From an uncultured Bacilli bacterium (lineage in GTDB: Bacteria; Bacillota_I; Bacilli_A; RF39; UBA660), in the NCBI GenBank assembly GCA_934086485.1, contig CAKOIF010000001.1, positions 55,438-119,437 of the forward strand: 64,000 nucleotides of DNA, given 5' to 3'. Of the stretch, positions 2,963-56,803 are shown piece after piece. The stretch's first letter is position 1, and each line of letters begins with the position of its first letter. The translations under genes were made by a program, and so were the position numbers. The notes beneath the pieces are model-generated. The model ran no database searches. It was not told the origin of the DNA and worked only from the letters and a program-made list of their open reading frames with translations.

Positions 2963-3127
2963 CTAGTATTAATTTTCATAAATTATATACTTTTAAGAAA
3001 AAGCATCCCTGTATTTATCTTATATCCATTATAATTTAACCATTTTTTTGAGCAATTTTCAAGCCCTTTTCCCGAAAATTGGTACCTAAGTTTTCCAAAA
3101 AGTATATAATTTGCGAAAGGACACCCC
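2963..3127. promoter_or_regulatory. putative invertible promoter switch, copy 1 (left arm 2963-3000, 91-bp core 3001-3091, right arm 3092-3127)
   Basis: The arms are imperfect inverted repeats. AAATTATATACTTTT (2980-2994) is exactly complementary to AAAAGTATATAATTT (3098-3112). The core is homologous to 9142-9232 and 14124-14214, and to the reverse complement of 44015-44107. Confidence 0.7.
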
Positions 3128-3153
3128 AGTATTTATAAGGGATGGAGAAGATT

Positions 3154-4107
3154 ATGATAAAAAATAATAATGTAAAAATAATGGGTATAATTGCAACTGT
3201 GTTATTACTCATAATAGTAATAACAGCATCATTTGCATACTTTGGTTCATTTAATGTAAATTTAAATAATAATGTAGCAGTAAATATTAATTCTACACCG
3301 GTAGGCAATGGAACATTTATATCAAATGCAACCCAGTTAAATTTACAAGTACCCGCAGCAAATATGAGTTCAACATCCTCAAATAATACTGTAGCTGCTG
3401 CATCAAATACTGCAACACTTTCAGTATCACTTACAAGTGGAAACGATGAAATAGAAACAACTTGTACATTTGATATATATTATGAATATACAGGAAGTAA
3501 TTTCTATGGTGTAAGTCCTAATACAAAAACAAGTGGAGCAAATAAAGAAATAACAATGACCGTAAATGCCCCAAGTGGAACAAGTAATTTTAGTACAGAA
3601 ACAAATTTTGATTATAATACCACTACTGGTTGGGTAACAGAAAATAATAAAAGAAAAGTTAAACTAGTGGAAAATGCAAGCATATCAAATTATGAAACAA
3701 CAGCAACAACCCAAGAATATACATTTACAGGCAAATATTATAATTTAGATATAAGTCAAGAACAACTAGCAAATAAATCATTTACAGGTATTATTTATGC
3801 AAGTAAGAAAGAATGTGTAAGTAAAGAAGCACCAATAACTTTTAGCATATCAAACTCTAGTGTAGTAACTACTTATTATGCAAAGAAGGGAATGACTTGG
3901 GAAGAATGGATTAATAGTGAGTATTATGATAGTAAGTCTAATATTACCATTGCAAAGGGCGATAGCGTAGTTATTATAACAACCACTGATACCGAAGTAT
4001 GCACAGATTTTATTGAAATAAACCATTCACAAACACAAAAATATAATGATGTAATTATTAATAAAATGGAATATAATATATCTTATTATGGTAGCTGCGT
4101 TGATTAA
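3154..4107 (+). CDS. membrane-anchored surface protein, paralog P1 (short form, distinct C-terminal domain)
   Basis: Start moved to ATG 3154 by analogy with the paralogs (GGAG RBS 7-8 nt upstream). Has an N-terminal hydrophobic anchor. Shares a ~200-aa module with P2/P3 (NATQLNLQVPAANMS, TTCTFDIYYEY, GKYYNL). Confidence 0.75.
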   Translation: MIKNNNVKIMGIIATVLLLIIVITASFAYFGSFNVNLNNNVAVNINSTPVGNGTFISNATQLNLQVPAANMSSTSSNNTVAAASNTATLSVSLTSGNDEIETTCTFDIYYEYTGSNFYGVSPNTKTSGANKEITMTVNAPSGTSNFSTETNFDYNTTTGWVTENNKRKVKLVENASISNYETTATTQEYTFTGKYYNLDISQEQLANKSFTGIIYASKKECVSKEAPITFSISNSSVVTTYYAKKGMTWEEWINSEYYDSKSNITIAKGDSVVIITTTDTEVCTDFIEINHSQTQKYNDVIINKMEYNISYYGSCVD

Positions 4108-4195
4108 AAAATATGTTGAACACTATTAAATTTTTATATTTTGTTCTTGACAAGTGTAACAAATACGCATATAATGTAATTATACGGAGGATATA

Positions 4196-7692: not shown

Positions 7693-7763
7693 AGCAAATA
7701 AAAAGGTTGTAAAAAAAGATTATTTATTATATAATATGGAAAGAAAAAAGGAGAGAATTATAA

Positions 7764-9011
7764 ATGAAAAATGTACACGAAATTGAAATTAAACTTACTA
7801 CTGAATGGGAAAAATGCTTAGATGATGCATTTAAGAAAAAAGTTAAAGAAACTAAAGTAGATGGTTTTAGAAAGGGAGCTTGTCCAAAAGAAGTATTTAT
7901 CAAAAGATTTGGTATTGAAAGTCTTTATATGGATGCTGTTGATGAAGCAGTTGGCTTAGGATATAAAAAAGCTTTAGAGGATAATAAAGATATTAATCCA
8001 GTTATTGAACCAAAAGTAGATATTAAAAATATTTCTGAAAAAGAAATAGAATTTAAATTTACTATTATAACTAAACCAGAAATTACTTTAGGAGATTATA
8101 AAAATTTAGGAATTAAAAAAGAAGAAGCTAAAGTAACTAAAAAAGAAATTGATGAAGAGATTAAAAAAATGCAAGATAAATTTGCTGATTTAATTGTTAA
8201 AGAAGATGGTATTATTGAAGAAGGAAATACTGCTGTTATTGATTTCAAAGGAACTGTTGATGGAGAGGTTCTAGAAGGCGGAAGTGCTGAAAACTATTCA
8301 CTTGAAATTGGAACTCATTCATTTATTCCAGGTTTTGAAGAAGGTTTAGTAGGTCATAAAACTGGTGATATTGTTACTTTAAATCTTAAATTCCCTGAAG
8401 ATTATGTAGAAAATCTTAAAGGAAAAGATGTAGTATTTGAAGTAAAAGTTAATGAAGTAAAAGTAAGAGTTTTACCAGAAATTAATGAAGAATTCTTTAA
8501 AGATTTAGGATATGAAGATATCAAAACTAAAGAAGAATTAGAAAATAAAGTAAAAGACAATCTTCAAAAAGAAGAACAAGCTAAACTTGATGATATTCAT
8601 TTAGATAAAGTTTTAGATAAAGCAATGGAAAATATGAAAATTGAACTTAACGAAGAAATCGTTGATGATGAAATTCACAGAATGATCCACGAATATGAAA
8701 GACAACTTAAAATGCAAGGTTTAGATATGAATAAATATTTTGAACTTACTGGTGATACTGAAGAAGGTCTTCATAAAAAAATGGAAGGCGAAGCTACAAA
8801 AAGAGTTAAATGTCGTTATTTAATCGAAGAAGTTGCTAAAAAAGAAAATATTGACTTTACTAATGAAGAAGTTGATGCAAAAGCAAAAGAAATGGCTGAA
8901 AACTATGGTATTACAGTTGATGAACTTATTAAAGCATATGGAACTATTGATGTAGTTAAATATGATATGACAATGCATAAGGCATTAGAAATTATTAAAG
9001 AAAATAACTAA
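7764..9011 (+). CDS. tig: trigger factor
   Basis: N-terminal FRKGACPKEVFIKRFG signature. FKBP-type PPIase domain (DFKGTVDGEVLEGGSAENYSLEIGTHSFIPGFEEGLVGHKTGD). Confidence 0.9.
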   Translation: MKNVHEIEIKLTTEWEKCLDDAFKKKVKETKVDGFRKGACPKEVFIKRFGIESLYMDAVDEAVGLGYKKALEDNKDINPVIEPKVDIKNISEKEIEFKFTIITKPEITLGDYKNLGIKKEEAKVTKKEIDEEIKKMQDKFADLIVKEDGIIEEGNTAVIDFKGTVDGEVLEGGSAENYSLEIGTHSFIPGFEEGLVGHKTGDIVTLNLKFPEDYVENLKGKDVVFEVKVNEVKVRVLPEINEEFFKDLGYEDIKTKEELENKVKDNLQKEEQAKLDDIHLDKVLDKAMENMKIELNEEIVDDEIHRMIHEYERQLKMQGLDMNKYFELTGDTEEGLHKKMEGEATKRVKCRYLIEEVAKKENIDFTNEEVDAKAKEMAENYGITVDELIKAYGTIDVVKYDMTMHKALEIIKENN

Positions 9012-9036
9012 GAGGCTTAAAAAAGTCTCTTTTTTT
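9011..9036 (+). terminator. rho-independent terminator after tig
   Basis: AGAGGC...GTCTCT stem with a G-U pair, followed by T7. Confidence 0.5.
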
Positions 9037-9103
9037 AGATTAATTTAATAAAAAATACCAAACAAAAAAAATCAGGCAAATCTCGCACAAATCCAGTATT
9101 TTC

Positions 9104-9268
9104 CTAGTATTAGTTTTCGTAAATTATATACTTTTGAGAAAGTACATCCTCGTATTTATCTTATGTCTATTATAATTTAACCATTTTTTTGAGCAATTTT
9201 CAAGCCCTTTTATCGAAATTTGGTACCTCAATTTTCCTAAAAGTATATAATTTATGAAAGAATACCCC
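9104..9268. promoter_or_regulatory. putative invertible promoter switch, copy 2 (left arm 9104-9141, core 9142-9232, right arm 9233-9268)
   Basis: Perfectly complementary 15-mers at 9121-9135 and 9239-9253. Same architecture and orientation as copy 1. Confidence 0.7.
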
Positions 9269-9296
9269 AGTATTTATAAGGGATGGGAGAATATAT

Positions 9297-10970
9297 ATGG
9301 AAAAAAATAATGTAAAATTAATTGGAGTATTTGCAAGCGCTTTATTACTTGCAATAATTGTAACAGCATCGTTTGCATATTTTGGTTCATTTGATACTAA
9401 TTTAACAAATAATGTAGCCGTAAATGTAAATTCAGTATCACCTGGAGATGCAACATTTACCTCAAATGCAACGCAGTTAAATTTACAAGTACCAGCGGCA
9501 AATATGAGTCAGACAGCCTCGAATAATGAAATAGCGGCAGCCTCAAATACTGCAACACTAACAGTAAATTTAACTGGAGCAGCAAACTTGCTTACAACTT
9601 GTACATATGATATAGTTTATGAATATGATAGTACCTCAAATGTATATGGTAAAAGTCCGACTACAAAAAATGGTAACAAAGAAATAACATTACAAGTATC
9701 AAATGTAAATGGAACAAATAACTTTGCAAATGAAAAGAACTTTGATTATGATTCAAGTTGGAGTGGACTAAAAAGAACTCTAGTAAGTGGAGCAACAATA
9801 TCAAGTAATGGCTCGCTTACTACTCAAAATATATCAATAACTGGAAAGTATTATAACTTAACAATATCACAATCTTCTTTAGAGGGAAAAGCTTTTACAG
9901 GAAAAATATATGTAACAAATCATAGTTGTAGTACAAGTGAACCAGCATATATAACATTATTGAATAAGTATGGTGGAAAAGATAGTATAACAGAGCTTCC
10001 AGATAGTGCCTTTGAAAATGTATCTACCGCAAGTGATAAAGGTATGTATGCAAAAGCTGATGATTATACTGCAACAACAGGAATGAAATCTTACTATTAC
10101 AGAGGTGCCGTAGATAATAACTGGGTACAATTTGGAAAAGAAGGAGATAAAGATATATACTGGAGAATAATAAGAATTAATGGCGATGGAAGTATAAGGA
10201 TGATATACTCTGGTACAACAAAACCAGAAAGTGGTACAGCGGCAGTAATGACTGGAACAGGTACTCAAATAAGCACAAGTTTCTTTAATAGTAGTAGAGA
10301 TAAAGCAGAGTATGTCGGTTATCAGTATATAGAAGGACAACAACATGGTTATGGAAAATGTAATGGAACAAGTGCAAGCTGTACGGTAAATGAAAATACA
10401 GTATATAATAGTGCAATAAAACAGGCAATAGATAAGTGGTATGAAGGAACAACATTAGAAAAAGATGTAGCAACAAAACCATTAGTATCACAAGACCAAA
10501 TATTCTGTAATGATAGAAGTGCATCATCAACCCAATCAGCAGCTTGGACATCAACAGGAGCTACATATTACTATGGAGCATATGGAAGATTAACACAATC
10601 TACAAAAAGCCCACAATTAACTTGTCCTGAAGAAAATGATAAATTTACATTAAAGGAAAGTAGTATAGGAAATAAAGCGTTAGAATACCCAGTGGGACTT
10701 ATAACAGCGGATGAAGTAGCAATGGCAGGTGGAGTAGTTGGCGCAGGTAATAGTTCATATTACTTGTATACAAACCAAGTATATTGGTCGGGGTCGCCTT
10801 ATAATTTCAGTTCTAGTGGAGGTACTCGGGAATTTATTGCGATTTCTTCAGGTTACCTTGACCATAGTAGTGTGAATATTTATCGTGGCGCCCGTCCCGT
10901 CATAAGTTTATCCTCTTCAGTTAAATTATCGGGCAGTGGAACATATGATGATGTGTATGTAGTAAGCTAG
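9297..10970 (+). CDS. membrane-anchored surface protein, paralog P2 (long form)
   Basis: N-terminal anchor plus the module shared with P1/P3. C-terminal domain is shared with P3 and distantly with P4 (YWRIIRINGDGSIRMIYSG, IFCNDR, ARPVISLSS..GSGT). Confidence 0.8.
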   Translation: MEKNNVKLIGVFASALLLAIIVTASFAYFGSFDTNLTNNVAVNVNSVSPGDATFTSNATQLNLQVPAANMSQTASNNEIAAASNTATLTVNLTGAANLLTTCTYDIVYEYDSTSNVYGKSPTTKNGNKEITLQVSNVNGTNNFANEKNFDYDSSWSGLKRTLVSGATISSNGSLTTQNISITGKYYNLTISQSSLEGKAFTGKIYVTNHSCSTSEPAYITLLNKYGGKDSITELPDSAFENVSTASDKGMYAKADDYTATTGMKSYYYRGAVDNNWVQFGKEGDKDIYWRIIRINGDGSIRMIYSGTTKPESGTAAVMTGTGTQISTSFFNSSRDKAEYVGYQYIEGQQHGYGKCNGTSASCTVNENTVYNSAIKQAIDKWYEGTTLEKDVATKPLVSQDQIFCNDRSASSTQSAAWTSTGATYYYGAYGRLTQSTKSPQLTCPEENDKFTLKESSIGNKALEYPVGLITADEVAMAGGVVGAGNSSYYLYTNQVYWSGSPYNFSSSGGTREFIAISSGYLDHSSVNIYRGARPVISLSSSVKLSGSGTYDDVYVVS

Positions 10971-10980
10971 GTTATAAAAT

Positions 10981-11060: not shown

Positions 11061-12917
11061 ATGTCTTTATTAATTGTAATTATAACATCTGTTATAATGG
11101 GACTACTTCCAACAGGGATAAAATATTTATCTGTAATGGCAAGCAATCTACTTCCTAAAAATTTAAAGCATAAATATCAAAATAGTAGTTTTTATTTAAA
11201 AAAGTATAGAGAAGTTTATGATATAGCTATTTCTTTGAAGTTTAGTGATAAATTCAAACTAGGCTTAATAAGTAAAAAAGTCCTTAAAAAAATGACTTCT
11301 TTAGATTTGATTGATATTGTGGATAATTTAAAATATGATGAAAATAAACTTAAATTTCTTTTGAAAAGTGAAGTTTTAAAAAACTTATTTAAAATGGATA
11401 GTAAAATAACCTTTAATGATAAAAATTTTTATGAATCACTATATAATAGTGTAAATGATGATGAAAAAATAAATCTGCTTACTCACATAAATAATGATGA
11501 ATTTGTAATAGAAAAATATGATCATTTAAAGAAAAAATTAAGTGATAAGAATAAATGTAAAATTATATGTTCATTAGAAAATGATGATAATAAGACAAAA
11601 CTTATTAATGATGTAAAAATTGAAAGTTTGACATATCAAATTCTTTGTACATATAAAAGTTTTGAAAAAGTTGAGAATTATTTATTGTCTTTAAAAGATT
11701 TATATCAATATTATTTAGTAAAACTTATGAGTGAGGAAGAAATTATAAGACTTCTTGAGAAAAATTTATTAATTAAACAAATATTAAGATGTACAAATAA
11801 TAAAGAAAGGTTTAATACTTATTTTTCATATCTTTCCTTAAAAGATCAAATAGATGTTTTAAAAATAAATCCTAATAGTGAAATGGTTTTATCAACATAT
11901 TTAAATATAAAAGATATGCTTAATGAAAAAGAAAAATTAGAAATTTTAGTAAATATTCTAAAAAATGGTGATGAGAATATTAAAAAAGAAGCATTTAATT
12001 ATTTACCAAACTCCGTAATAAAGGATATTATTTTAACAAATGAAGAAAAACATAGTGATGAGAATGTTAAATTATATAATGGTGTTTCTGATAAAGTAAC
12101 TTTTGGCGTAGAACTTGAATCATCGCATAAAGATAGTTTATTAATTAAAAAGTTAAGTACAATAAACTCTAATTGGATTTTAAAAGGAGATAGTTCAATT
12201 AAGGGAGGAGTGGAAATAGTTTCACCAATACTTCATTATGATAAAAAATCCTTAATGAATTTAAAATATGTTTGTGATTTTATGGAAGCAAATAATTTTG
12301 AGGTAACAAATGAGTGTGGTGGACATATTCATATTGGCTTTGACTTTTTTGACAATGTTAAAGAACTAGAAATGCTTTATATGATATATGGCAATGCTCA
12401 AGATATTTTCTTTGATATATGTAATCGTAAGGGTTCTATCCAAAGACCTAAATTATTAGATTATGCTAAACCTATTACGAGTAAATTATATTTAGCAATT
12501 ATTACTCATAAATTTGATGATAATATAAATTTAAATGCTTTTGTTAAAGAAATGAAAGAATTACAATCAGGTAGATTTTTTGATATAAATATATTAAATG
12601 CCCAAAGTAAATTGAAAAATACAATTGAATTTAGATTTCCAAATGGAGAAATTAATTATGAAGAAGTTTTACTTAATATTACTTTGATTATAAAACTTTG
12701 TATGGCTGCGAAAAAATATGCAAGTATAAATTGTTATGATGAAAAATATTCAGTAATTAAACTTTTACAGTGTGAGACAAATAAAGATACTAGAAAAAAC
12801 ATTTTATTTAAAATTCTTTTTGATAATGACGAGATGCTTAAAAATATTTATAATGAAAGATATGAAGCAAATAATAAAGAAGATGTTTTTGAAAGAAGAT
12901 TTGTAATTGATTTTTAA
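11061..12917 (+). CDS. amidoligase-domain protein (Amidoligase_2-like) with long helical N-terminal region, paralog A1
   Basis: C-terminal motifs FGVELES, GGVEIVSP, CGGHIHIG and IEFRFPNG. Paralog of 41630..43405. Confidence 0.6.
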   Translation: MSLLIVIITSVIMGLLPTGIKYLSVMASNLLPKNLKHKYQNSSFYLKKYREVYDIAISLKFSDKFKLGLISKKVLKKMTSLDLIDIVDNLKYDENKLKFLLKSEVLKNLFKMDSKITFNDKNFYESLYNSVNDDEKINLLTHINNDEFVIEKYDHLKKKLSDKNKCKIICSLENDDNKTKLINDVKIESLTYQILCTYKSFEKVENYLLSLKDLYQYYLVKLMSEEEIIRLLEKNLLIKQILRCTNNKERFNTYFSYLSLKDQIDVLKINPNSEMVLSTYLNIKDMLNEKEKLEILVNILKNGDENIKKEAFNYLPNSVIKDIILTNEEKHSDENVKLYNGVSDKVTFGVELESSHKDSLLIKKLSTINSNWILKGDSSIKGGVEIVSPILHYDKKSLMNLKYVCDFMEANNFEVTNECGGHIHIGFDFFDNVKELEMLYMIYGNAQDIFFDICNRKGSIQRPKLLDYAKPITSKLYLAIITHKFDDNINLNAFVKEMKELQSGRFFDINILNAQSKLKNTIEFRFPNGEINYEEVLLNITLIIKLCMAAKKYASINCYDEKYSVIKLLQCETNKDTRKNILFKILFDNDEMLKNIYNERYEANNKEDVFERRFVIDF

Positions 12918-14000: not shown

Positions 14001-14026
14001 GAGTTTACAAGCGTAAACTCTTTTTG
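14001..14026 (+). terminator. rho-independent terminator after spoIVB
   Basis: GAGTTTAC-aagc-GTAAACTC hairpin followed by T5. Confidence 0.65.
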
Positions 14027-14085: not shown

Positions 14086-14250
14086 CTAGCATCAGTTTTC
14101 CTATATCATATACTTTTGAGAAAAATCATCCTAGTATTTATGCTATCATCAATATAATTTAATCATTTTTTTGAGTGATTTTCAAGTCCTTTTCCCGAAA
14201 ATTGGTACCTCTATTTTCCTAAAAGTATATGATTTGTGAAAATAGACCAT
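14086..14250. promoter_or_regulatory. putative invertible promoter switch, copy 3 (left arm 14086-14123, core 14124-14214, right arm 14215-14250)
   Basis: ATCATATACTTTT (14105-14117) is exactly complementary to AAAAGTATATGAT (14221-14233). The substitution relative to copies 1 and 2 is present in both arms. Confidence 0.7.
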
Positions 14251-14277: not shown

Positions 14278-16017
14278 ATGAAGATTAATAAAAATAAATT
14301 TAAAAGCATTATTGCCTCAGTATTTTTACTTGTTTTAGTAATAGGTGCAGCATATGCTTATTTAGGTACTTTTAATGTTGATTTAAGTAATGATATAGCA
14401 GTTAATATTAATTCAACAAGTCCAGGTAATATAGCTTTTGTAGCAAATGCTACTCAATTAAACTTGCAAGTACCAGCATCAAGTATGGGTTCATATTTAG
14501 CAAATAATACTGTAGCGGCAATGGAAAATAATACAGTATTAAGTGTAAGTCTTCAAGGAGCAAATGGATTTAAAACAACTTGTACATATGATATAGTTTA
14601 TGAATATGATAGTTCATCATTAGTTTATGGAAGTTCTAACGCTCCAGTTACAAGTGGTGCAACAAAAGAAATAACATTACAAATAGAAAATGTAACAGGA
14701 ACTAATTATTATGAAACAGAAAGAAATTTTAATTATTATACAGGTTCATATAATGGTAATACAAATGATAAATGGACATCAACCACTAAAAGAACATTAG
14801 TAAGTGGTGCAACAATAGAAAGCAAAGGGACTATTACAAGTCAAAGTATAAATGTAATAGGTAGATATTATAATTTAGATGCTTATCAAGATTTAGGTGG
14901 TAAAGCTTTTAATGGTACAATCTATGTAGAAAATGTTAATTGCAGTCTAGAAGAAACTGAACCAATGGAATTTGGCTATATGACAATTTTAAAAAACAAT
15001 GGAGGTAAAACAGCGATAGAAGCAAAATCAGTTGATTTAAGTGTAATACCTAAAACAAATGAAGGAATGTATGCAGCGCAGGATGATTTAGGAACATCAT
15101 ATTATTTTAGAGGAGCAGTAGATAATAACTGGGTAAAATTCGGCAAATATAAAAAAAATACATATATTTATTCATACATATATGATGAAGAAAATCAGTA
15201 TAAAACAAACCTTTTTACTGATGAATGTGATGATACCAAAATGGATTGTATGTTATTAGCATCAGAAGGTGATGATATGTACTGGAAAATAATACGAATA
15301 AATGGTGATGGAAGTATAAGAATGATTTATAGTGGAATAACACCTCCAACTGAAGATACTAGTCTAGCAAATTTAGATGATAATAATATTGGATTCTCTC
15401 AATTTAATGAAACGAATGATAAAGCAGAGTATGTTGGCTATATGTATACCATCGGAGAACAACACGGAATAACACAAAATAGTAAAATTAAAGCATATAT
15501 TGACAATTGGTACGAAAATTACACTAACTTTGTTTCTAATGATTTAATAAGTAATGAAATATTTTGTAATGACAGAGAACTTCGAAAAGGTTATACTTGG
15601 TCAGATAGAGATGAAATTGATTATGCACCTTACGAAAGAGCAACGTATTCAGTTTATTACCCAATATTAACTTGTACTAACAACAACGATAAATTTACAG
15701 TAAGTACAAATAATGGAAATGGAGCTTTAACGTACCCAATAGGTTTGTTAACATCGGATGAAATACTTATGTCTTGTTTTGACGCACGAGGACATTCATT
15801 TAATGCTGATTGCTTTTTGAGTTCGAATTTAGAGTATATGTTGCTATCGCCAGCGGACTTTAATGTTGATGCTGAAATTTATATAATATCGGATAATGTT
15901 TTTAATACTGCAAATGTAATTTATTCATATGGTGTAAGACCTGTAATAAGCCTATCATCAGATGTTGTGTTAACGGGAGATGGAACTTGGAATAATCCTT
16001 ATGAGGTTGTAAGTTAA
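14278..16017 (+). CDS. membrane-anchored surface protein, paralog P3 (long form)
   Basis: Start moved to ATG 14278 (GGAGAGG RBS), because the 14236 GTG extension lies inside the switch. Same modules as P2. Ends VRPVISLSSDVVLTGDGTWNNPYEVVS. Confidence 0.8.
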   Translation: MKINKNKFKSIIASVFLLVLVIGAAYAYLGTFNVDLSNDIAVNINSTSPGNIAFVANATQLNLQVPASSMGSYLANNTVAAMENNTVLSVSLQGANGFKTTCTYDIVYEYDSSSLVYGSSNAPVTSGATKEITLQIENVTGTNYYETERNFNYYTGSYNGNTNDKWTSTTKRTLVSGATIESKGTITSQSINVIGRYYNLDAYQDLGGKAFNGTIYVENVNCSLEETEPMEFGYMTILKNNGGKTAIEAKSVDLSVIPKTNEGMYAAQDDLGTSYYFRGAVDNNWVKFGKYKKNTYIYSYIYDEENQYKTNLFTDECDDTKMDCMLLASEGDDMYWKIIRINGDGSIRMIYSGITPPTEDTSLANLDDNNIGFSQFNETNDKAEYVGYMYTIGEQHGITQNSKIKAYIDNWYENYTNFVSNDLISNEIFCNDRELRKGYTWSDRDEIDYAPYERATYSVYYPILTCTNNNDKFTVSTNNGNGALTYPIGLLTSDEILMSCFDARGHSFNADCFLSSNLEYMLLSPADFNVDAEIYIISDNVFNTANVIYSYGVRPVISLSSDVVLTGDGTWNNPYEVVS

Positions 16018-20549: not shown

Positions 20550-20599
20550 TTAAATATGCTAGCAGCAAATATATGTTCGATATTAGAAAAGGAGGAATT

Positions 20600-21190
20600 A
20601 TGTTATTAGAGCTTGAAAATCATTTAAACTCAAAATATCAAGATGTTACAAACTATGTTATAAAAAAATCACAAACAAGCAATAATTTTATTAAGGAAAT
20701 TAATAAATATTTAAATTACAATGTTAATAACGCTAAATTTGATAAACGTGACATTGGAAAATTAGAAAAAATGACATTGTTAAATATTCAGAACATTATC
20801 GGAGGAAGTTTTATTTTGATACATAGAGTACAAATTGAAAATGTATCTACGCCAGATGCGAAATATATAAATAAAAATATTTTTAATGGTTCAAAGTATT
20901 TTGAAATTAAATCTCCAAAGAAAAGTTTAAATGAAAACTCTAAATTAAAGAAAATATATAGGCAGTTAGATGAAGCAAAACATCAGTCAAATAATGTGAT
21001 AATATCTTTACTTAGAGATGAATGTGATTTAAGTAATGAAGAAGCCAATTTACAAATAATTAATTGCTTAAATAATATCAGATATCATTGGATTGATACT
21101 ATCATTTTAATTGGCAAAAGTAATTATATAAAAATATACAAAAAAAGAAAGAACCTTAACGGAATGCCATTGTGGTCCTTTCTTTTATAA
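20600..21190 (+). CDS. hypothetical protein with possible PD-(D/E)XK-like motif
   Basis: Start moved to ATG 20600 (AAAGGAGG RBS). Segment PDAKY...YFEIKSP resembles a D..ExK nuclease core. This is a weak call. Confidence 0.4.
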   Translation: MLLELENHLNSKYQDVTNYVIKKSQTSNNFIKEINKYLNYNVNNAKFDKRDIGKLEKMTLLNIQNIIGGSFILIHRVQIENVSTPDAKYINKNIFNGSKYFEIKSPKKSLNENSKLKKIYRQLDEAKHQSNNVIISLLRDECDLSNEEANLQIINCLNNIRYHWIDTIILIGKSNYIKIYKKRKNLNGMPLWSFLL

Positions 21191-41629: not shown

Positions 41630-43405
41630 ATGAATATAGATGAAATAAAACTAAACTATTATTTAAGTACAAATAAAAAACATTTATATAAACTAAAACA
41701 CGATTCACATTTTTTAAAACTACTTGGGAAAAATATAGATTTTATTAATGATACAATTTTAGATAATGTTTTAAATGATATTAATGCTGTTATTGATTTT
41801 CTTCTTTATGTTAAGACAGATGAAAATAAATATAATTTTTTGCTTATTCCTAAAATAAGACAAATTTACTTTAAAAATACATATCAAGATATTTTGTTTA
41901 GTGATAATTCTTATTATGATAAACTTTATTTAAAACTTTCTGATGAAGAAAAAGATAAATTTTATATGTATATTAAAATAAGTTATCTTCCTACATTTTT
42001 AAAAAATAATTTTAATATTATTGGTAAAGAAAAAGTATTTTATATTCTTATGAACTATCAATTTGATGATAAAGTTTATGAAATGTTTTTAAGTATGTTT
42101 GAGTGTAAAATTAAGATAAAAGGTTTACTTCTTAAAATAAAAGATTATAATGTTAAATGTAAATACTTTGATATTCTTCCTATTTATGAGCAAAAAAGAT
42201 GTATACCTTATTTACCAAATAGACTAGATTACATTAATAATAAAGAATTACTTCCATATATTATTGCTGCGGAAGGTAATGAAAAATTAATATTTAAATA
42301 TTATAATGATTTATCTTATAATGATAAATTAACTGTTTTAGAAAATATAAAATATGATAATGATTTGCAAATATATTTACTTAATCACTCTGGGTTTGAT
42401 AAAAAGGAGTATCTATCTGCTTTAAGAGTTATATTGGGCATTATTCACGATCCAAAAACTATCGCGGATTTATATGAAAAAATAGATATAAATGTTGTTA
42501 AAAAAGTGCAAGGTGATTGTATGCCTAACACAAGTGATAACTTTTATATGGACTATAATATTGATAAAAAAATTAAATTTGGTGTAGAATTAGAATGCTC
42601 TAATATGTATAATGATTTGCTTTTAAAGTTTAAAAAGTTTGGAGGGTGGAATATAGTTTCTGAGGAATCAGTAAAAAATGGTATTGAATTTACTTCACCA
42701 GTTTATCATTATGATAAAGAAAGTTTGCAAAATTTAAAAGATATGTGTGCATTTTTAAATAATAATGAGTTTAATTATAGCGATGATGCAGCGGGTCATA
42801 TTCATTTTGATGTTCATATATTTAATAATGTTAAAGAGTTAATGACATTTTACAAAATATTTTGTAATGTCGAGGACATCTTATATTTGATTTTTAATAG
42901 GCCAAATTCTTTTATTCGAAATAATATTAATACTTATGCTATTCCTTTATCTAATAGATTAAATAAAAATATTGTTAACTCTTTTCATCCAAAGTTTTCT
43001 TCGATAGAGCAGTTTACTTCCTTTGTTCATTATTCTCAATATGGTAGACACTCTAGTATTAATATTAATAACGTTTATGAAAATACTAAAAATACCATTG
43101 AAATAAGAATTCCAAATATAGAAATGAATTTTGAATATTTACACGAAAATATAATGCTTATTTGTTATTTAATTATGATTTCAAAAAAGATTGCTAATGA
43201 AGATAAATATAGTAAAAATAATATTTTGGTTAATTTATTAACTGTTGATATGACTATAGAAAAAAGAAAAGATATTTTATTAAAACTTTTATTTTCAGAT
43301 AATAATTATTTACATAATATTTTTGATTATCGTTTTAAGAGAAATATTGAGGTTAATAAAGACACAACATTTATCAAGGAAAATACTTCCCATCTAACTT
43401 TTTAA
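41630..43405 (+). CDS. amidoligase-domain protein, paralog A2
   Basis: Motifs FGVELECS, NGIEFTSP, AAGHIHFD and IEIRIPN. Helical N-terminal region shares the FSDNSYYDKLY block with A1. Confidence 0.6.
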   Translation: MNIDEIKLNYYLSTNKKHLYKLKHDSHFLKLLGKNIDFINDTILDNVLNDINAVIDFLLYVKTDENKYNFLLIPKIRQIYFKNTYQDILFSDNSYYDKLYLKLSDEEKDKFYMYIKISYLPTFLKNNFNIIGKEKVFYILMNYQFDDKVYEMFLSMFECKIKIKGLLLKIKDYNVKCKYFDILPIYEQKRCIPYLPNRLDYINNKELLPYIIAAEGNEKLIFKYYNDLSYNDKLTVLENIKYDNDLQIYLLNHSGFDKKEYLSALRVILGIIHDPKTIADLYEKIDINVVKKVQGDCMPNTSDNFYMDYNIDKKIKFGVELECSNMYNDLLLKFKKFGGWNIVSEESVKNGIEFTSPVYHYDKESLQNLKDMCAFLNNNEFNYSDDAAGHIHFDVHIFNNVKELMTFYKIFCNVEDILYLIFNRPNSFIRNNINTYAIPLSNRLNKNIVNSFHPKFSSIEQFTSFVHYSQYGRHSSININNVYENTKNTIEIRIPNIEMNFEYLHENIMLICYLIMISKKIANEDKYSKNNILVNLLTVDMTIEKRKDILLKLLFSDNNYLHNIFDYRFKRNIEVNKDTTFIKENTSHLTF

Positions 43406-43993: not shown

Positions 43994-44142
43994 TTTTTCA
44001 TTTACAGTATATAAATTTAGTACATGAATTTTATGGAAAAAGGGCTTGAAAATCACTCAAAAAAATGGTTAAATTAAAATAGATATAAGGTAAATACAAG
44101 GGTTCTCTTTCTCAAATGTTTAAGATAAGAGAAAAATGACCC
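43994..44142. promoter_or_regulatory. switch copy 4 with core in the opposite orientation (core about 44015-44107) and degenerate arms
   Basis: 44015-44107 matches the reverse complement of cores 1-3 (GGGCTTGAAAATCACTCAAAAAAATGGTTAAATT...). The downstream CCCAAGTATTTATAAGGGATTGGAG RBS block keeps the same orientation as in copies 1-3. Confidence 0.7.
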
Positions 44143-44171: not shown

Positions 44172-45575
44172 ATGAAAAATAAAAAGGTATATGTAATTTT
44201 AATAGTTCTTATTTTAATTGGAAGTATATTTTTAACTTATAATATTTATCAAAATAAAAATAAAGTAATTAAAACTAAAAAAAATAAACAAAATAATTTA
44301 GCAATAATGATTAAGGAAGATGGAGCAACTGATTATACAAAATCAAATTCAAAAGATATACCTAAAGGAAATTATGTATTAAATAGAGATAAAAGTTATT
44401 GCAAAAATAATGGTAAAATAGGTAATTATGATAGCTCTTTAGGTAAGGTTAGTTTTTTATTTATAGGTTCAGATAACTGCTATTTATATTTTGATTATAA
44501 AGATAATCCGCCAGAAATATTAAATGTTTCGGTAACTGGTAAAATATTAACTGCAGATTTAACGGATGATAATAATTTATCAGGATATGCAGTAAATACG
44601 AGTAATGTTACTCCATCCTCTTGGACTAGTATTTCCGGAAAAAACTATAAATTAAATATTACAATTTCTACTCCTGGTACTTATTATTTATGGGTAAAAG
44701 ATAATTCAAATAATATAACTAAATATGAAAATATTATTATAAATAAAACCGCTAGTGATATTATTGTTGCAAAATCCGAGACGAATTATTCAATTGTTTC
44801 AGAAAATGGGCTTAGATATGAGGGTGCTAGTCCTGATAATTACATATGTCTTGATAATAATACAAGTGGCAGTTGCTCAAATACTAATTTATTATTTAGA
44901 ATAATAGGCCTATTTGAGGAGGAATATTCTTTGGATGGGACAAATAGTGCCGGTAAAACTAATATGATTAAAGTTATTAAACCAACTCATTATGCAACTT
45001 CGTATTGGCATTCATCAAGAAATAATGATTGGTCAAATTCAGATATTAAAAAAGCATTAAATGAAACATACTTGACTGAACTTCTTTCATTAAATAGCAA
45101 TATTGAAAATAAAATTGTAAATGCAAAATGGTATTTAGGAGCTAAAGATACTAGTGACACTAACGACACAAATAATTCTGTTAACAATTATTATAGTGAT
45201 GAACGTTCTACTGAATATATATTATATAACCGAAGTGCATATGCTTTTGCAAAAGTTGGATTATTATATCCGAGTGATTGGGGATATGCTGCAATTTATA
45301 CTAAATGTAGTCGAAGCTGGTCAATGTTTGTAACTGGATACGGAAAATATTCAGGATGTGATTCAAATAATTGGCTTGGCTATAGTAGTAATGAATGGTT
45401 ATTAACACCTCAAGTTTCATATGAAGCAAGCGCTGCAGTTAAATCAACAAAAAGATACGTTGATAAATATGATGTAAATGGTTATAAATTCGCATATCGT
45501 CCAGTATTATATTTAGATGCAAGTTATGCAATGATTGGATCTGGCACTGAATCTGATCCATATCGTTTGGTGTAA
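44172..45575 (+). CDS. membrane-anchored surface protein, paralog P4 (different N-terminal module, related C-terminal domain)
   Basis: Start at ATG 44172 after the GGAG RBS. Has an N-terminal TM segment. The C-terminal region parallels P2/P3 (LLFRIIGL, VGLLYPSD, AYRPVLYLDAS..GSGTESDPYRLV). Confidence 0.75.
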   Translation: MKNKKVYVILIVLILIGSIFLTYNIYQNKNKVIKTKKNKQNNLAIMIKEDGATDYTKSNSKDIPKGNYVLNRDKSYCKNNGKIGNYDSSLGKVSFLFIGSDNCYLYFDYKDNPPEILNVSVTGKILTADLTDDNNLSGYAVNTSNVTPSSWTSISGKNYKLNITISTPGTYYLWVKDNSNNITKYENIIINKTASDIIVAKSETNYSIVSENGLRYEGASPDNYICLDNNTSGSCSNTNLLFRIIGLFEEEYSLDGTNSAGKTNMIKVIKPTHYATSYWHSSRNNDWSNSDIKKALNETYLTELLSLNSNIENKIVNAKWYLGAKDTSDTNDTNNSVNNYYSDERSTEYILYNRSAYAFAKVGLLYPSDWGYAAIYTKCSRSWSMFVTGYGKYSGCDSNNWLGYSSNEWLLTPQVSYEASAAVKSTKRYVDKYDVNGYKFAYRPVLYLDASYAMIGSGTESDPYRLV

Positions 45576-54855: not shown

Positions 54856-54897
54856 TAATATACAAATTATAAAATGTGAAAGGAGTTAGTTTTTTTA

Positions 54898-55005
54898 TAA
54901 TAGCGCATGGCCTATTTAGGTGACGAGGACTTACATTGTCGATTTATCAGCGGATATGTAAGCGGAGCAGTTTTACTTCGGAAAATACTTTAAAAAAATA
55001 AAATC
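54898..55005 (+). ncRNA. glmS ribozyme: glmS ribozyme (GlcN6P-dependent self-cleaving leader)
   Basis: A/GCGC cleavage-site context at 54902-54906. Conserved core GGTGACGAGGA..TGTCGATTTATCAGCGGATATG with complementary CTTACA/TGTAAG arms. Lies directly upstream of glmS. Boundaries are approximate. Confidence 0.8.
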
Positions 55006-55051
55006 AAAATTATAACAAAGAGGTATTTAATAAAACAAGAAAGGAATTTTT

Positions 55052-56803
55052 ATGTGTGGAATTGTAGGTTACAAAGGTAATCAAAATAGCATTCCTGTTT
55101 TATTAAATGGGTTAAAATCTTTAGAATATAGAGGCTATGATTCAGCAGGACTTGCTTATATAAACGGGGGTAAAATAACAATTAAAAAAGCTATAGGAAG
55201 GGTTAAAAATCTTGAGAATTTAGTTACTAACGAAGACTATGGAAATATTGGTATTGCTCATACAAGATGGGCAACTCATGGGGGAGTAACAGATAAAAAT
55301 GCTCATCCTCATAAACAAGGTAAAATAACTTTAGTACATAATGGTATTATTGAAAATTATAAAGAACTAAGTGAAAAGATTGATACAAAATTATTAAGTG
55401 AAACTGATACAGAAATATTATGTGCTTATATAAATAAGTTATATAATGAAAATCACAATATGCTTAAGACTTTAGCAAAACTTAAAAATGATATAAAGGG
55501 TAGTTATGCACTTGCAATAATTAATGAAGATGAACCAGATACTTTATATGGGGTTCGTAAAAATGTACCATTAATACTCGCTAAAAACGATAATGAATAT
55601 TTTTTAGTATCTGATATGACTGCAGCACTTAAATATACAAATAAATTTTATTTACTTGAAAATGATGAAATTGTTAAAATTTCTGATAAAGAATATATTT
55701 ATGATAGTGATCTTAATCTATTAAAGAAAGAACTTTTAACTTTTGAGGGAACAAGTAATGATGTTATGCTTAAGGGTTATCCTCATTTTATGTTAAAGGA
55801 AATTCATGAAGAACCAATGGTTATTAATAATATTTTATCTTATTATTTAACTGATGGTAAGTTTAATGAAAATATGCCTGAATTTAAAAAATATAAAAAT
55901 ATTTATTTTGTAGGATGTGGAAGTGCTAGTTATACTGCAGACATTGCTAAAAAAGTATTTGAAAATTATGCAAATATTAAATGTGAAGTATTTTTAGCAA
56001 GTGAATTTAGATATCAAAAACATTTTTATGATAAAGATACATTAGTTGTATTTATTTCACAGTCAGGAGAAACTGCGGACACTTTAGAGGCTCTTAGAAT
56101 TACTAAAAGTGATGGTATAGATACATTAGCTATTGTTAATGTAGTGGGTTCTTCGATTGCTAGGGAAGCAGGTAAAGTATTATATATTAAAGCAGGAACT
56201 GAAATAGCTGTGGCCACGACAAAAGCATTTACAGCCCAATATTTACTTCTTACACTTATTGCTCTTAAAATGGCTGGTATAAATGATTTAAGCAAGTTTT
56301 ATAAAATAAATGAAGCATTAGAAACTGTATTTGCTATAGACTTTCAAAAATATGCAGAAAAAATATATACTAAAAAAGATGCGTTCTTTATTGGTAGGGG
56401 AATAGATTATGGTTTATGTGAAGAGGGAAGTCTTAAGTTAAAGGAAATAAGTTATATAAACTCGTCTGCATTTGCTTCTGGAGAACTTAAACATGGTACT
56501 ATATCATTAATTGAAAAAGATACTCCAGTTATGGGAATAATAACTGATGATAATCTTGCTCTAAAAACAATTAGTAATATAAAAGAGGTTCATGCAAGGG
56601 GAGCATATAGTTTATTTATTACAAGTTTAGATATTGATGGTGACTTTTATGATGATAAAATTAAAGTACCTCATATAAATAATTATATTGATCCTATTTT
56701 AATTGTGGCAAGTTTGCAACTTCTTGCATATAATGTTGCTCTTTTAAAAGGCGAGGATATAGATAAACCAAGAAATTTAGCTAAAAGTGTTACTGTGGAA
56801 TAA
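55052..56803 (+). CDS. glmS: glutamine--fructose-6-phosphate aminotransferase
   Basis: Begins MCGIVGY (N-terminal Cys), has two SIS domains and ends KSVTVE. Confidence 0.95.
   Translation: MCGIVGYKGNQNSIPVLLNGLKSLEYRGYDSAGLAYINGGKITIKKAIGRVKNLENLVTNEDYGNIGIAHTRWATHGGVTDKNAHPHKQGKITLVHNGIIENYKELSEKIDTKLLSETDTEILCAYINKLYNENHNMLKTLAKLKNDIKGSYALAIINEDEPDTLYGVRKNVPLILAKNDNEYFLVSDMTAALKYTNKFYLLENDEIVKISDKEYIYDSDLNLLKKELLTFEGTSNDVMLKGYPHFMLKEIHEEPMVINNILSYYLTDGKFNENMPEFKKYKNIYFVGCGSASYTADIAKKVFENYANIKCEVFLASEFRYQKHFYDKDTLVVFISQSGETADTLEALRITKSDGIDTLAIVNVVGSSIAREAGKVLYIKAGTEIAVATTKAFTAQYLLLTLIALKMAGINDLSKFYKINEALETVFAIDFQKYAEKIYTKKDAFFIGRGIDYGLCEEGSLKLKEISYINSSAFASGELKHGTISLIEKDTPVMGIITDDNLALKTISNIKEVHARGAYSLFITSLDIDGDFYDDKIKVPHINNYIDPILIVASLQLLAYNVALLKGEDIDKPRNLAKSVTVE

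Follow-up and report, generated by a model that had tools for sequence, protein, structure and literature searches.

Matched core sequences in the arms of putative invertible promoters upstream of paralogous secreted-protein genes in an uncultured gut Bacilli lineage

The 64-kb stretch of DNA analysed here (the window) contains three similar elements, copies 1, 2 and 3, which align over approximately 200 nt and each of which consists of two 29-nt sites lying 118 nt apart, with the ATG of one of three paralogous genes 35 nt past the right site (Table 1). The sites have a layout of 11 + 7 + 11 nt, a near-palindrome made of two inverted half-sites around an asymmetric core at positions 12-18, and the putatively invertible segment between them is 89-90 bp long. 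In the loci sampled below, the sites take the form TTTTCnTAnAT + 7-nt core + nTnTnnGAAAA, with the ends TTTTC and GAAAA nearly invariant. When the inverted repeats of the window are ranked by length, copies 1-3 come 5th to 7th, and the conserved interior pattern matched within the window at these three copies only, with 0 matches expected. The interior of each contains a consensus match to a sigma-70-type promoter, TTGAAA-17-TTAAAT, on the minus strand. Since this predicted promoter points away from the gene, copies 1-3 are in the OFF orientation. A terminator-like hairpin precedes each copy, and these hairpins would insulate the switch against read-through.

Table 1. Positions of the predicted switches, their component sites and the associated genes within the window
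Feature	Position	Strand	Description
Copy 1 switch	2973-3119	+	Left site 2973-3001, core TATATAC 2984-2990; right site 3091-3119, core 3102-3108
Copy 1 interior	3002-3090	promoter on -	-35 3057-3062, -10 3034-3039; OFF
Gene under copy 1	3154-4107	+	317 aa from ATG 3154; paralog with the shared N-terminal domain
Copy 2 switch	9114-9260	+	Left site 9114-9142, core TATATAC 9125-9131; right site 9232-9260, core 9243-9249
Copy 2 interior	9143-9231	promoter on -	-35 9198-9203, -10 9175-9180; OFF
Gene under copy 2	9297-10970	+	557 aa; family with >6,200 unnamed homologs in gut metagenomes
Terminator-like hairpin, 5' of copy 3	14001-14020	+	A similar one lies 5' of copy 2 at 9010-9031
Copy 3 left recombination site (putative)	14096-14124	+	Outer half TTTTCCTATAT, core CATATAC 14107-14113, inner half TTTTGAGAAAA
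Copy 3 interior, 89 nt	14125-14213	-	-35 TTGAAA 14180-14185, 17-nt spacer, -10 TTAAAT 14157-14162; OFF
Copy 3 right recombination site (putative)	14214-14242	-	Reverse complement TTTTCACAAAT-CATATAC-TTTTAGGAAAA; core 14225-14231, + strand GTATATG
Gene under copy 3	14278-16017	+	579 aa; N-terminal hydrophobic helix; beta-rich conserved N-terminal domain common to genes 1 and 2
Fourth switch-derived copy	43995-44135 (element to 44174)	+	ON: -35 TTGAAA 44046-44051, -10 TTAAAT 44069-44074
Gene 3' of the fourth copy	44172-45575	+	467 aa; different protein, only a 30-aa C-terminal motif common to genes 2 and 3

A further motif, CCnnGTATTTA, is present as three direct copies, one in each flank and one immediately interior to the left arm, and is conserved over 48 loci. 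In the window it is found at approximately 14078, 14134 and 14252, at 9096, 9152 and 9270, and at 3011 and 3129. It may be the site of an accessory protein, and base pairing between two of its copies, on either side of the right arm, would be possible in the ON-state mRNA leader. The consensus fold of an ON-state leader hairpin formed from the repeated GTATTT motif was weak (-2.96 kcal/mol), with essentially no covariation.

The window also holds a fourth, switch-derived copy in the ON orientation. Its alignment score was approximately 200 to copies 1-3 inverted in silico versus 87 to their OFF form. The right site of this copy is intact (44107-44135, core CTTAAAC), and the left site (43995-44023) is degenerate and without a matching core. 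Because the left site has decayed, this copy is probably locked ON, as judged from its sequence.

The putative secreted proteins encoded by genes 1-3 share a domain of approximately 225 amino acids, and each has an N-terminal hydrophobic helix. Searches of Pfam, NCBIfam and PDB with the three proteins gave no above-threshold match; the carboxyl terminus of the gene 3 product had a sub-threshold Pfam hit to DUF6273 only. A resemblance of the signal peptide to the SipW/TasA type was not confirmed, and the AlphaFold model of a switch-controlled protein was poor (pLDDT 46.6). Relatives of this genome also carry paralogs that have no switch, in which the same promoter is fused straight to the ribosome-binding site and reads into the gene. 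Several other features of the window were noted in passing. Each of two Amidoligase_2 paralogs (11061-12917 and 41630-43405) has a switch-controlled gene in its neighborhood, the region 20573-21190 encodes a small protein with a CdiA C-terminal toxin-like domain, and a glmS ribozyme (54891-55037; Rfam RF00234, 56.4 bits) is located 5' of the glmS gene at 55052-56803.

The arm cores of copies 1 and 2 are AAATTATATACTTTT and AAAAGTATATAATTT, at 2981-2995/3097-3111 in copy 1 and at 9122-9136/9238-9252 in copy 2. Read directly from the sequence, the left arm core of copy 3 (14105-14117) is ATCATATACTTTT and the right one (14221-14233) is AAAAGTATATGAT. The two are exact reverse complements at 13 of 13 positions, and the pairing ends outside this stretch, where T14104 is opposite T14234 and G14118 is opposite T14220. 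The sole core difference of copy 3 from copies 1 and 2 is C14107 with its mirror G14231, located at position 12 of the site, which is the first position of the 7-nt core. The first-pass annotation had reported a T-to-C change on the left mirrored by an A-to-G change on the right, with full complementarity retained, and this is confirmed to the base. By simple arithmetic the odds of the mirrored base are approximately 1 in 39, assuming one substitution in the right arm, and the three copies by themselves make the mirrored change only suggestive; with the 32 distinct arm pairs from related loci described below, the support for a paired change is overwhelming. The same position-12 change is present in three related loci (L144, L155 and L195), and the change in copy 3 is therefore an old, inherited paired change.

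Scanning the species-representative genome collection for the exact pattern of the conserved interior gave no match. As the switch sequence was too divergent for a scan of this kind, related loci were retrieved by anchoring on the conserved protein domain, which produced 35 loci in the species-representative genomes and another 80 in metagenomes. The two-arm switch architecture was found in 51 of the retrieved loci, the arms being located at -183 and -64 relative to the ATG. One of these, L145, was dropped for an indel in an arm, leaving 50 loci with 32 distinct arm pairs. One public metagenome contig, L210, begins with 35 positions (TATCGTCGGCAGCGTCAGATGTGTATAAGAGACAG) that we take to be a Nextera adaptor and that would in that case be an untrimmed-read artefact.

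The 7-nt core was identical in both arms in 28 of the 32 pairs, versus 7.2 pairs on average and 17 at most when the right arms were permuted in 100,000 trials. Arm-to-arm mismatches were found at 69 of 352 compared positions in the outer half (positions 1-11) and at 63 of 352 in the inner half (positions 19-29), giving 132 for the half-sites together versus 8 (of 224) in the core (positions 12-18). Departures from the consensus were distributed in a similar manner, with 15 paired and 69 unpaired in the outer half, 34 paired and 8 unpaired in the core, and 18 paired and 63 unpaired in the inner half. An independent counting of pairs scored the core helix as 97.3% paired, with four of its seven positions altered on both sides. 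The tally of paired against unpaired substitutions that the first-pass annotation had proposed, made over the 13-bp stretch in the 32 arm pairs, came to 47 paired and 28 unpaired departures from the consensus. Co-variation is confined to the 7-nt core. The suggestion that the arms co-evolve within a locus while differing between loci thus stands for the central seven nucleotides and does not extend to the half-sites at positions 1-11 and 19-29, which diverge unpaired.

Seven matched versions of the core were observed: TATATAC, CATATAC, CTTATAC, TATAAAC, TATATAG, TATACAG and TATACAT. These are linked by at least six paired changes of a single step each, which fall at positions 12, 13, 16 and 18. 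The four unmatched cores consisted of two hybrids of two core types (L089 and L134), a degenerate site (L187) and L197, which shows a fresh change of the core in a single arm and whose ortholog L105 is matched. L089 and L134 are mosaics, each joining arms of two different core types. Within the window, copies 1 and 2 carry one common core, TATATAC, and the cores therefore do not give each switch of a genome its own unique address.

Both orientations of the interior occur among the 51 related two-arm loci, 27 being OFF and 24 ON. Over 2.3 kb, L090 (OFF) aligns colinearly with L186 (ON) at 90% identity, interrupted only by a block of 148 nt that is 100% identical as the reverse complement. A block of this kind was found in L092/L196 at 99.3%, and the pairs L191/L199, L202/L138 and copy 3/L144 resemble L090/L186, the copy-3 relative L144 being ON. 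In seven such OFF/ON pairs the outer half-sites remained fixed in place and the inner half-sites exchanged sides. A model in which the inner halves are swapped left 0 mismatches, versus 6 without the swap, in six of the seven pairs, and 2 versus 5 in the seventh. Position-11 markers remain with the flank and position-19 markers move with the interior, which places the crossover within positions 12-18. The idea that the arms are recombination partners is borne out by the two orientations at orthologous loci and by this exchange of the inner half-sites. An arm forms the exact start of several public contigs, the right arm in L084, L086, L188, L205 and L229 and the left arm in L162 and L228, which suggests assembly breaks caused by mixed orientations within a sample.

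No inverted form of copies 1-3 was found in approximately 25 independent assemblies of the same species, in which all were OFF; the contigs spanning a switch numbered nine for copy 3, nine for copy 2 and six for copy 1, plus L221 and L222. Intact, matched sites and the behavior of the related loci suggest that copies 1-3 themselves are also able to invert. The arms, the interior and the right flank were identical among the same-species assemblies, L227 alone differing, in the left flank and the inner half of the left arm. L227 is a mosaic, with a gene and interior identical to those of copy 1 and 19 differences in those two segments, and together with L089 and L134 it may represent exchange between loci. 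In another strain of the species, L220, the right arm and gene 1 are deleted (equivalent to 3088-4125 of the window), as are switch 2 and the 5' two-thirds of gene 2 (equivalent to approximately 9097-10975). From these deletions it follows that the switch-controlled genes are dispensable and are hot spots for loss.

Gene order differs in close relatives. The trigger factor gene (tig) of the window is 96-98% identical to those of uncultured gut Bacilli MAGs labelled 'Mycoplasma sp. CAG:472'. When 7707-9012 of the window is compared with L001-L003, the trigger factor gene alone is shared, at 96% nucleotide identity, and the flanks differ on both sides. Just upstream of tig, L001-L003 have a paralog without a switch and a gene for an Xer-like tyrosine recombinase, both of which are absent from that place in the window. 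No recombinase was found in the 64-kb window by Pfam analysis of essentially all ORFs of at least 100 aa, by a scan for tyrosine-recombinase motifs or by tblastn, and no member of a recombinase family was found over the 10 kb preceding the window (in L220-L222). The Xer-like gene beside tig in the relatives is a single-copy gene that genomes lacking full switches carry as well. It is a weak candidate for the recombinase and may be a housekeeping gene.

The reading that we prefer, with a probability of roughly 0.88, is that the copies are invertons in which a recombinase, most likely of the tyrosine family, flips the promoter by way of the matched 7-bp cores and thereby toggles one secreted-protein gene each. 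A recombinase encoded outside the window would pair the two sites of a switch and exchange strands inside the core, and the resulting inversion would switch the promoter between facing the gene (ON) and facing away (OFF). Exchange by a tyrosine recombinase leaves a heteroduplex in the overlap region of the product, so that partner sites must share this region, as is established for Cre, FLP and lambda Int. Here too the core would be heteroduplex in the product, and because of this the two cores of one switch must match, their sequence being otherwise free. Such a requirement would let the core vary between switches, giving the seven versions, and keep it equal within each, with C14107/G14231 as one such change. 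The 11-7-11 layout, the identity across all seven core positions and the free choice of core sequence are the reasons for matching these sites to the tyrosine recombinase rule.

A new core could spread to both arms in the following way. If a mutation arose in the core of one arm and a single inversion followed, each chromosome strand would carry one parental core at both sites, and replication would then be expected to give daughters in which both arms are mutant or both are wild type. The earlier proposal that recombination keeps the arms matched is plausible, given a tyrosine recombinase. We infer the class of the recombinase, the effect on transcription and the route by which a new core is fixed, the last of these from the known mechanism; selection for invertibility would yield an identical pattern of matched arms.

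A serine invertase of the Hin/Gin/Mpi type would require identity only at a central 2-bp crossover, any wider match reflecting half-site recognition or recent ancestry. The 29-bp sites are near-palindromic around an invariant TA at positions 14-15 that could serve as the 2-bp crossover, and global serine invertases acting on many promoters are known in Bacteroides, according to work cited in PMC2268961. However, the paired changes at positions 12, 13, 16 and 18 span all seven base pairs and reach beyond the center, and half-site contacts at those positions would not force the same variant into both arms. A palindromic TA crossover would in addition leave the relative orientation of the sites unfixed, the window has no resolvase-type gene and the 89-nt interior contains no gene, so that we consider a serine enzyme unlikely.

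Two further explanations dispense with inversion, and both appear highly improbable. In one, the 5' leader of the genes would fold into a hairpin from the two arms, as RNA or as a single strand, and act like an attenuator or riboswitch-like element; the matched change would then be covariation of the RNA type. The complementary arms would suit a hairpin, as would the many arm-to-arm differences that are transitions readable as G-U pairs and the conservation of the region 5' of paralogous genes. Yet the switches have no Rfam match, the copy-3 region folds no more stably than shuffled sequences (z = -1.44), a transcript from the internal promoter would hold one arm only, and the co-variation ends sharply at the 7-nt core instead of running along the helix. 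We rejected the hairpin on the orientation polymorphism, which contradicts it: no RNA model predicts both interior orientations with swapped inner half-sites. In the other, the copies are miniature inverted-repeat transposable elements, or the arms are a pair of palindromic operators around the promoter, and the matched change was copied or is coincidental. Short, multi-copy elements with inverted repeats at both ends resemble such transposons, but the switches sit at a constant distance from the downstream ATG within conserved flanks, and the outer halves of the arms stay with the flank. Since only the inner halves move, the exchange took place within the arm and was not a re-insertion of the whole element. 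Each arm is near-palindromic, like the binding site of a dimeric regulator, but operators would need no matching central bases and would not invert. The movement of only the inner half of each arm led us to reject transposon and operators alike.

The present switches can be compared with several known systems. The heterospecific lox and FRT variants used by Cre and FLP have inverted elements around an asymmetric spacer of 6-8 bp and recombine efficiently only with a partner that has the same spacer, whose sequence can otherwise vary largely at will. Unlike those engineered variants, whose half-sites are 13 bp, the sites described here have 11-bp half-sites and comprise seven natural variants in one chromosomal switch family. 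Mpi is a serine recombinase whose inverted repeats share one consensus, whereas the cores found here are locus-specific. According to the summary in PMC2268961, many surface-structure loci of Bacteroides fragilis are under promoter inversion by globally acting recombinases, and the present switches resemble these in placing what may be surface-structure loci under promoter inversion.

The closest mechanistic parallel is provided by the RecV switches of Clostridioides difficile, whose 'spacer code', a 2025 proposal based on six switches, holds that the spacers are identical within a switch and unique to each; the heteroduplex overlap rule was applied there, with Cre cited as precedent (PMC12282940). 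Like that system (PMC12282940), the present one has several short invertible regulatory segments per genome, sites made of two degenerate motifs around a short spacer, and a recombinase that is encoded elsewhere and would act in trans, as judged here from its absence in the window. It differs in the half-site (TTTTCnTAnAT here versus AWAGTWNCCNTTW), in the length of the spacer (7 bp versus 6), in that its switches precede paralogous secreted-protein genes, and in that copies 1 and 2 have a spacer in common. The RecV-binding motif AWAGTWNCCNTTW-N6-WAANGGNWACTWT had 0 matches in the window with up to three mismatches allowed. The switches therefore appear to work like the RecV family without being members of it, as the binding motif differs and is absent from the window.

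In gene organization the closest analogue, as judged from the summary in PMC2268961, is the mpl (P35) lipoprotein family of Mycoplasma penetrans, which has individual invertible promoters and Xer-like tyrosine recombinases as candidate enzymes (Horino et al. 2003, via PMC2268961). As far as that summary goes, the two systems are alike in that each gene of a large paralogous surface-protein family has an adjacent invertible promoter of its own for independent switching, and both hosts belong to the Bacilli/Mollicutes radiation and have reduced genomes; they differ in that the gene family described here is unrelated, has neither a lipoprotein signal nor a Pfam match and belongs to a different lineage. 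None of the papers in the collection searched links this lineage with invertons. The switches are a new member of an established switch type and not a new kind of mechanism.

It is tempting to speculate that the switch family is a natural record of how a spacer code evolves, through mutation of one arm, inversion at low efficiency and replication, and that switches with the same core could recombine with each other; we regard this extension as possible but rather doubtful. If it were true, both the disrupted gene order around these loci in close relatives and the mosaic or hybrid arms of L227, L089 and L134 would be accounted for by recombination between switches with a common core, for instance copies 1 and 2.

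The comparisons made here provide natural support for the 'spacer code': seven codes were observed, paired changes numbered at least six, and the crossover region could be placed from the sequences alone. Further switches can be looked for, and candidate recombinases tested, with the site model TTTTCnTAnAT-N7-ATnTAnGAAAA. For the organism, the data point to phase variation by invertible switches in an uncultured, reduced-genome lineage of human-gut Bacilli. The switches would govern a very large, unnamed family of putative secreted proteins, of which metagenomes contain more than 6,200 homologs, and because its members appear to be under phase-variable control, they are candidates for surface or host-facing functions.
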